In this document: positions 7,907 through 8,212 of the stretch, in pieces
Layout of the letters: each line of letters starts with the position of its first letter
How positions within the stretch are numbered: the first letter of the stretch is position 1
Source: a virus
Lineage: Duplodnaviria; Heunggongvirae; Uroviricota; Caudoviricetes
Direction: 5' to 3' (one strand)
Virus record (IMG/VR): IMGVR_UViG_3300029762_000052
Length of the DNA: 8,212 nucleotides
Notes under the pieces: model-generated
Databases searched by the model: none
What the model was told of the DNA's origin: nothing
What the model saw: only the letters and a program-made list of their open reading frames with translations
Position numbers and translations under genes: made by a program

Positions 7907-7920
7907 TCCCGGCACAGATA

Positions 7921-7937
7921 AGAATAAGTCTTATTCT
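7921..7937. promoter_or_regulatory. 17-bp palindrome AGAATAAG-T-CTTATTCT just upstream of the lipoprotein start; candidate operator overlapping a putative -10
   Basis: Perfect 8+1+8 inverted repeat read directly, 15-30 nt upstream of the ATG at 7906. On the coding strand a TAGAAT -10-like hexamer overlaps it, and TTGATG lies about 19 nt further upstream (weak promoter call). Confidence 0.4.
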
Positions 7938-8212
7938 AACAATGCCACCCTGTCGGTCATCAATCCTCTGCTTAATGGCAACGACAATTATCCGACTTAA
8001 ATCACAAATCAGACACATGACATAACAGGTCATGCGAGGTAACACATCGTCCGGTTTCTTCCACCATCGCACCGGACCAGCGACCATGAGGGGACAACGC
8101 CGCGCTCCGTTAACGCGGTAAACCCCGGTGTGTATCGTTTTTGATTATCCCCGCACACTCGCGCAGAGGAGTCTCCCTGTCGGGCTGCGGTCTCTGTTAA
8201 TACGGGAATACG

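Follow-up and report, generated by a model that had tools for sequence, protein, structure and literature searches.

A lineage-specific dyad over the predicted promoter of a TonB-domain lipoprotein moron in a lambdoid Escherichia coli prophage

Results

The late region and its moron cassette

The window, by which we mean the whole stretch of DNA analysed (8,212 nucleotides; IMG/VR record IMGVR_UViG_3300029762_000052), is the late region of a lambdoid E. coli prophage. The minus strand carries all large open reading frames of the window, and transcription of the late operon runs from high to low coordinates, through genes for an HNH endonuclease (7200-6835), the small terminase (6546-5989), the large terminase (5992-4331), a prohead protease fused to the major capsid protein (4267-2330) and the portal protein (2118-754), a packaging module of the HNH/HK97 type. 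On the plus strand lies a small DUF3950 (YnfO/YlcI) gene (7242-7442). Positions 7100-8212 are 97% identical to Stx1a-converting phages, phage Lys8385Vzw and phage JLK-2012, the last of which has the same gene set after its holin, endolysin, Rz and KilA-N genes. This synteny, together with the minus-strand gene content, places the palindrome that is the subject of this study within the late region, and the host prophage can be described as lambdoid, Stx1-type and Marienburgvirus-like.

Several other repeats lie within the window. Downstream of the portal gene a 162-bp unit is repeated 3.7 times at 92% identity (1-592, minus strand) and presumably encodes a repeated 54-residue domain. A perfect G+C-rich hairpin, ACGGGAGGCG-CA-CGCCTCCCGT, separates the capsid-protease and portal genes (2294-2315). 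The intergenic region between the HNH and small terminase genes contains five copies of GTTAAC (6623-6742), mostly as ATGTTAAC or GTTAACAT, with only two further copies elsewhere in the window; the cluster includes the perfect 18-bp palindrome CAGTTAACATGTTAACTG (6727-6744) and could represent terminase or cos recognition repeats.

The gene downstream of the palindrome is a moron, that is, a self-contained add-on. It occupies a 604-bp minus-strand cassette (7444-8047) inserted between the lysis and packaging genes, with a GC content of 0.43 as against 0.57 for the rest of the window. The collinear phage vB_EcoS-569R3 has no counterpart of 7444-8047, and its empty junction reads ...AACCGAACG|TTCATTTC (longer, ...GGAAGAAACCGAACG|TTCATTTCTCG). 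In the window the cassette is flanked by AACCGGACG (8056-8048) and AACCGAACG (7452-7444). These ends form a 9-bp direct repeat, AACCG(G/A)ACG, of which the empty site in 569R3 has one copy; on reading, the two cassette ends showed no terminal inverted repeats. At this junction phage BP-4795 has a different AT-rich insert, ~250 bp long. Among 5426 complete E. coli genomes the cassette is present in 414, and the flank at 8050-8212 in about 1900. In its small size, AT-richness, late-gene position, presence or absence among collinear phages, own promoter (predicted here) and cell-envelope product, the cassette resembles known phage morons such as bor and lom of lambda and, in the LF82 prophage Perceval, sitABCD and the "TonB fragment" (PMC9928086). 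Unlike those morons, this cassette yielded no terminator-like site downstream of its gene on the minus strand (7574-7100) and carries a degenerate copy of its own leader.

That copy, TAAGTCTTGTTC-CGCCGGGTATGAAGATGAAA (7486-7517, minus strand; repeat families D1 and I4), lies downstream of the gene and repeats the leader and first codons of 7895-7936 (TAAGnCTTnTTC...GCCGGGnATGAAnATGAAA), start codon included, and heads a 44-codon open reading frame that runs antisense into the end of ynfO. It has the look of a remnant, either of a duplication or of a second gene since lost. A terminator-like hairpin found by a sequence scan marks the upstream edge of the cassette (8014-8036, minus strand); since 6 of 28 haplotypes have different sequence upstream of 8019, it is not a constant part of the cassette. 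An 83-codon open reading frame (7836-8087, minus strand) covers the promoter and runs into the beginning of the TonB-like gene. It has no Pfam match, and the annotation of JLK-2012 includes a shorter form of it as hypothetical protein gp71; we consider the frame probably not a gene. Finally, we note that at one locus of E. coli 14EC017 (L085 1501-1569), where the TonB-like gene is unannotated, the cassette can be matched only as far as the palindrome (window position 7922), and an IS1 is annotated ~60 bp beyond that point.

A TonB C-terminal domain with a lipoprotein signal

The cassette gene (7574-7900, minus strand) encodes a 108-residue lipoprotein, MKRNLPLIILLSSLVMGC..., with a Pfam TonB_C domain (E 5.5e-15). 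The reading frame could start at 7906 or 7900; the upstream ATG, at 7906, is lost in many haplotypes (GGGAATAAAAATG), so 7900 is taken as the start codon. By sequence the protein begins with a signal peptide, its lipobox being VMGC with Thr next, and the stretch from residue 24 to residue 104 matches solved TonB C-terminal domains over its full length (E about 3e-16), including those crystallised on BtuB and FhuA. The putative product is a complete TonB C-terminal domain anchored in the outer membrane. Periplasmic TonB C-terminal fragments inhibit TonB-dependent transport, and it is therefore a reasonable hypothesis that the product is a decoy that would block TonB-dependent uptake, or that it serves exclusion. 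PHROGs places the protein in phrog_1267, "Rz-like spanin" (E 2.6e-42), a label that is probably an annotation error stemming from the location of the gene.

A second allele, type B, has 71% protein and about 74% DNA identity to the allele of the window (type A) and is found at this position in about 1200 further genomes, which brings the two together to 1618 of the 5426 complete E. coli genomes (about 30%). Type B also occurs in phages 21, ev017 and Perceval, in the last between iss/bor and lambda-type terminase genes. The gene always lies between lysis and packaging genes, and a distant homologue (40% identity) follows the lysis genes of a Klebsiella phage. Scans of GTDB genomes with the protein alignment gave no confirmed relative, and scans of IMG/VR and metagenomes gave no leader alleles beyond the two common ones; matches outside the family to the 17-mer GATATTGGTGCTGATGG were chance hits in unrelated proteins. 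Literature searches turned up nothing on the gene beyond an entry in a table on LF82 (PMC9928086), and we found no published function for it.

The palindrome and the promoter

Upstream of the gene lies a perfect 17-bp palindrome, AGAATAAG-T-CTTATTCT (7921-7937; in full, AGAATAAGTCTTATTCT), with an 8-1-8 layout and its dyad centre at 7929. Sequence and coordinates are exactly as first described. Its arms end at 8 bp, the flanking bases 7920 (A) and 7938 (A) being unpaired, and the coding (minus) strand across it reads ...CATTGTTAGAATAAGACTTATTCTTATCTGTGCCGGGAATGAAAATGAAAAG.... The palindrome exceeds what base composition would give. Perfect palindromes with arms of at least 8 and a spacer of 0-1 number two in the window against 0.3 expected from first-order Markov resamples of the window, so that palindromes of this size are about sevenfold commoner than in the resamples; allowing up to three mismatches, the pattern itself occurs once against 0.01 expected. 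Among IMG/VR sequences its occurrences are essentially confined to the TonB-like cassette.

What does the palindrome overlap? A promoter scan identified an extended -10 element, TGtTAGAAT (7941-7933, minus strand; TAGAAT at 7938-7933, TGt at 7941-7939), preceded across a 16-bp spacer by a weak -35-like hexamer, ATGACC (7955-7960). From the usual spacing of 6-8 nt after the -10, transcription is predicted to start at 7925-7927, within the distal arm of the palindrome, which would thus span about -13 to +5, where a repressor would act. The overlap with a putative -10, TAGAAT, had been part of the original prediction; it holds, and the extended element is conserved in the sister allele. Across 28 type-A haplotypes TGtTAGAAT shows zero variation, the -35-like hexamer also reads ATGGCC, ATGATC or ATGCCC, and the spacer varies too. 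Extended -10 promoters depend little on a -35, and the variable -35 and spacer fit such a promoter. The element likewise resembles extended -10 (TGn) sigma-70 promoters in its TG one base 5' of the -10, in the A2 and T6 of that -10 and in its poor, variable -35.

We aligned four leaders on the start codon: type A, the 89% allele P0003, P0006 (a B-like protein on one NCBI contig) and type B. The type A leader is CATTGTTAGAATAAGACTTATTCTTATCTG-TGCCGGGAATGAAAATG, and P0003 is identical to it through the palindrome; the P0006 leader is CATGATTAAAATAGAGCCTGTTTTTGTTTGTTGGCGCGTATAAAAATG, and that of type B (phage 21 and LF82) is TATTGTCAGAATAAGACCCGT--------------AGGAATAAAAATG. Every allele has a -10-like hexamer with A2 and T6 in the same place, namely TAGAAT in type A, TAAAAT in P0006 and CAGAAT in type B, where the extended element reads TGtCAGAAT. 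The block ATTGTnAGAATAAGAC is intact in types A and B while its flanks diverge and the coding DNA is only ~74% identical. The promoter-proximal arm is therefore conserved because it consists of the -10 and the bases after it, and it is kept in every allele. The distal arm is restricted to one allele lineage and is absent from type B through a 14-nt deletion; the long leader of P0006 shows that type B has a deletion rather than type A an insertion. A second upstream block kept across the alleles, TTTGTGATTTAAGTCGGATAAT (7987-8008, minus strand; core AGTCnGATAAT), could be an upstream -10.

Expression in a lysogen has been documented for the sister allele: Table 1 of PMC9928086 lists the type B gene, "LF82_160, TonB fragment", with 8-fold higher expression than the local prophage background in a lysogen grown in LB. 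The type A promoter is predicted, and it is supported by the conservation of ATTGTnAGAATAAGAC and by this published expression. Because type B lacks the distal arm and is nevertheless expressed, the distal arm is probably dispensable.

Is the palindrome a Fur operator?

The original prediction had read the palindrome with its flank, GATAAG-AATAAG-T-CTTATT, as loosely Fur-box-like, with about 13 of 19 matches. The count is right: the 19-mer GATAAGAATAAGTCTTATT (7917-7935), three NATAAG hexamers in F-F-x-R order, matches GATAATGATAATCATTATC at exactly 13 of 19 positions, and it contains a second dyad, TAAGA-N5-TCTTA, centred at 7926. Since 13/19 is also reached at 7544 and 7589, both within the same AT-rich cassette, the consensus count alone is not distinctive.

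We therefore scored the site with a symmetric 19-bp matrix obtained by iterative alignment, seeded on TGATAATnATTATCA, of 17 Fur-controlled promoter regions of E. coli K-12 (ylcI-nohD, fepA-fes, fepD-entS, fepB, entC, fhuA, fecA, fecI, cirA, fur, tonB, sodA, fhuF, ryhB, gpmA, exbB and sufA). Its consensus is AATGATAATCATTATCATT. The training sites score 10.3-27.8 bits (median about 21; leave-one-out median 20.3), the weakest footprinted operators being those of tonB (12.4) and fur (10.3). Independent positive controls scored 27.5 bits (sitA of LF82) and 21.1 bits (a cos-adjacent site in LF82), and the stx1 promoter of phage BP-4795 has two sites, 21.7 and 20.4 bits, 6 bp apart. In the published model of Chen et al. 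2007 the tonB/fur operators have 11.5 and 12.3 bits, the weakest training site has 11.1 bits, and 389 genomic sites lie above 11 bits (PMC2189734).

With our matrix 7917-7935 scores 11.2 bits, the best in the window. Neighbouring registers score 3.7 (-3), 7.1 (+3), 2.2 (+6) and -15.1 (-6) bits, the 7.1-bit register (7920-7938) being the one centred on the palindrome. Scores of at least 11.2 bits are reached by 0.7-1.5% of composition-matched shuffles of the promoter region and by 6.6% of whole-window shuffles, P-values that are optimistic since the site was found by its symmetry first and matched to Fur afterwards. In real DNA unrelated hits of 11.2 bits or more turn up about once every 12-25 kb; such chance hits range from 11.6 to 15 bits, and those of JLK-2012, at 15.0 and 13.6 bits, lie inside a coding region and an IS3 transposase gene. 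The score is neither poor, equalling those of the weakest operators, nor convincing, as chance hits in phage DNA reach it too. By the refuting condition given with the original prediction, which includes a poor matrix score, the Fur reading is not refuted, nor is it supported. The likeness to a Fur box is numerically correct, but it stands at background level, is unconserved and comes without a partner at 6 bp.

Could Fe2+-Fur nonetheless bind 7917-7935, occlude the -10 (7938-7933) and the predicted start, both of which the site overlaps, and so render the TonB-domain lipoprotein iron-repressed? Such control would parallel that of the host tonB gene and of the stx1 operon of related phages. 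The position is right for repression, the score is close to those of the footprinted tonB and fur operators, the shuffle P-value for the promoter region is 0.007-0.015, the 3-bp-shifted registers also score positive, the footprinted fecA site shares the half-site AATAAGAAT, and a Fur-controlled moron is known in this phage group (stx1). As in E. coli Fur operators including that of stx1, which likewise belongs to a Shiga-toxin-type prophage, AT-rich F-F-x-R hexamers lie over the -10 and +1. Yet the site is ~10 bits weaker than the median true site, typical Fur sites and stx1 alike, and it scores below the in-gene chance hits of JLK-2012. In the 7-1-7 model of Fur binding, the G and C of the half-sites in TGATAAT-n-ATTATCA distinguish Fur from related boxes. 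Here the half-sites in the best register, TAAGAAT and TAAGACT, are without the G and T of TGATAAT, the G/C being absent from both halves, and those in the palindrome register, GAATAAG and its complement, match TGATAAT-n-ATTATCA at 8 of 14 positions. The site has no overlapping second site 6 bp away (-15.1 and 2.2 bits), unlike stx1, entC, fepB, fepD-entS and sitA, whose 6-bp partners score 13.9-20.4 bits; the weak tonB and fur operators are similarly without a strong partner, so that this comparison is not decisive.

Conservation also bears on this reading. P0003 retains the site at 11.2 bits, but the other sister leaders have no Fur-like site, the best scores being -5.0 in type B (phage 21 and LF82), 2.2 in P0006 and 6.8 bits in the Klebsiella-phage homologue, and P0006 retains the dyad without the Fur-like bases. 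The searchable literature contained no Fur ChIP or expression data for the type A gene. On balance we regard control by Fur at 7917-7935 as possible but unlikely.

The K-12 prophages Qin and DLP12 offer another comparison. Their nohA and nohB Fur sites, validated by Chen et al. 2007 at 22.3 and 25.3 bits respectively (PMC2189734), also lie in the lysis-to-packaging interval beside a DUF3950 (ylcI/ynfO) gene. The DLP12 nohB/nohD site is strong in our matrix too (25.2 bits), unlike the 11.2 bits found here, and it has no homologue anywhere in the window; a check of whether the nohA and nohB sites are homologous to 7917-7935 showed that they are not. In our own reading the DLP12 site (L087 2590-2614) adjoins a lambda-type cos (GGGCGGCGACCT...) between ylcI and nohD, and the cos-adjacent 21.1-bit site of LF82 (L004 22333) is its counterpart in Perceval. 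We know of no reason for a Fur operator near a packaging site. Phage BP-4795 has, in addition, a Fur-like 18.8-bit sequence, AATGAAAACAGTTCTTATT (L324 3603-3621), in the yjhS/DUF1378 intergenic region upstream of its lysis genes.

Another regulator or an RNA hairpin

The symmetry itself suggests that some other dimeric regulator, of host or phage origin, could read the AGAATAAG half-sites and repress the moron promoter. The perfect 8-1-8 symmetry is laid over the -10 and +1, and 17 bp with an 8-1-8 layout is the form of lambdoid repressor operators. The palindrome is near-invariant in the type-A population, and a rare variant, T to A at 7920, lengthens it to 19 bp by a ninth pair; the 28 haplotypes have one variable site within the 17 bp against ~2 expected, a comparison that is uninformative because diversity is low. 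Against such an operator, we found no second copy in the window, in the first 30 kb of JLK-2012 or outside the cassette in IMG/VR, and the cassette encodes no regulator. Half-sites are not enriched in the window, and the first 30 kb of JLK-2012, including cI-cro and pL, holds nothing closer to the palindrome than four mismatches; the only other near-match in JLK-2012 is the degenerate leader copy, with four. The half-sites of P0006 differ at 3 of 8 positions, and the commonest allele has the distal arm deleted. No E. coli factor is known to us whose site would fit, and we think such an operator doubtful.

Individual candidates fared no better. A lambdoid CI/Cro-type operator was rejected, as neither cI-cro nor pL of JLK-2012 has related copies, and the cI-cro intergenic dyad of that phage is of the CGTACTGAAAGTACG type. 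The neighbouring small protein, put forward as a ribbon-helix-helix binder and in fact DUF3950 (YnfO/YlcI), has no palindrome or half-site near its own gene or promoter, which lends that suggestion no support. Among host factors judged by their known sites, DeoR (TGTTAGAA.TTCTAACA) has in common with the palindrome just the half formed by the extended -10, an RcsAB box (TAAGAAT.ATTCCTA) reaches 12/14 only with a 1-nt insertion, and ArgR, Lrp, NarL, PhoP, EvgA, SlyA, CRP, FNR, LexA and Zur do not appear to fit. DeoR and RcsAB would match in one half only, or would need the spacing changed by 1 nt or 9 nt.

The leader of P0006 is of particular relevance to the symmetry. Its counterpart of the palindrome, AAAATAGA-G-CCTGTTTT, keeps 6 of 8 pairs, with double substitutions at two pairs (A-T in place of G-C, G-C in place of A-T) and T-G in place of T-A at one; in the type-A population one variant gives a G-T pair and another adds the ninth pair. 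This is a single sequence, and 20 of 500 shuffles match its number of compensatory pairs. The pattern argues against a protein of fixed specificity such as Fur. A weak hairpin could account for it, and so could template switching that corrects the quasi-palindrome, for which no function need be invoked.

A hairpin could act in transcripts started upstream, from the late operon or from a promoter near the conserved GATAAT (7992-7987), in which a 7-bp stem with a 3-nt loop would affect mRNA stability or processing. An identical 7-bp/3-nt fold is predicted for the type-A and P0006 leaders, and in RNA terms the changes amount to two compensatory pairs, one U-A to U-G and a population variant from G-C to G-U. 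On the other hand, the stem is AU-rich and weak, with an energy no better than that of shuffles (z -0.96 and +1.02); in type A no U-tract follows the stem, which excludes a terminator; the covariation comes from one sequence, and quasi-palindrome correction could yield it without function; the commonest allele has the hairpin deleted; and its 5' arm is untranscribed if the TAGAAT promoter is used. More generally, no RNA fold of the palindrome region, the upstream hairpin or the post-stop region was better than shuffles, and an Rfam scan of the whole window (E up to 1) matched no family. We consider an RNA hairpin improbable.

Discussion

What, then, is the palindrome? We propose, with the scales about evenly poised, that it is the core promoter of the moron bearing a lineage-specific dyad, and hence an ordinary promoter feature. 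Sigma-70 RNA polymerase would use the extended -10 with little help from a -35, giving modest and presumably constitutive transcription of the TonB-C-domain lipoprotein gene in the lysogen, and during lytic growth the gene would also be read through together with the late operon. The dyad would not be needed for expression, nor would there be a dedicated Fur operator. Most likely the dyad is a lineage-specific quasi-palindrome, possibly kept symmetric by template-switch mutation, and any effect of it would be at most weak and modulatory.

Several observations sit uneasily with an ordinary promoter feature. A perfect 8-1-8 dyad over the -10 and +1 is unlikely from composition and occupies the classic position of a repressor site. 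Similarly, 11.2 bits is the top Fur score of the window and is reached by only 0.7% of composition-matched shuffles of the 75-bp promoter region, and true operators of equal weakness exist (tonB and fur). The dyad is nearly invariant among the 28 haplotypes, which is not significant at such low diversity, and the 6 of 8 pairs kept by P0006 hint that symmetry itself is maintained.

Finally, we consider what iron control would mean for these phages. That the dyad is an iron-responsive operator, for Fur or for another protein, which induces an outer-membrane-anchored TonB C-terminal domain under iron starvation seems to us very unlikely. If it were so, the domain and host TonB would be rivals for the TonB boxes of derepressed siderophore receptors, and the lysogen would be shielded from TonB-dependent phages and colicins when those receptors are most abundant. 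Likewise, if Fur bound the site, Stx1-type phages would have a second iron-controlled moron besides stx1. The palindrome itself is a minor regulatory detail, and the gene behind the promoter is the more interesting of the two; knowing when it is expressed would help to test its proposed role as a decoy against TonB-dependent uptake.
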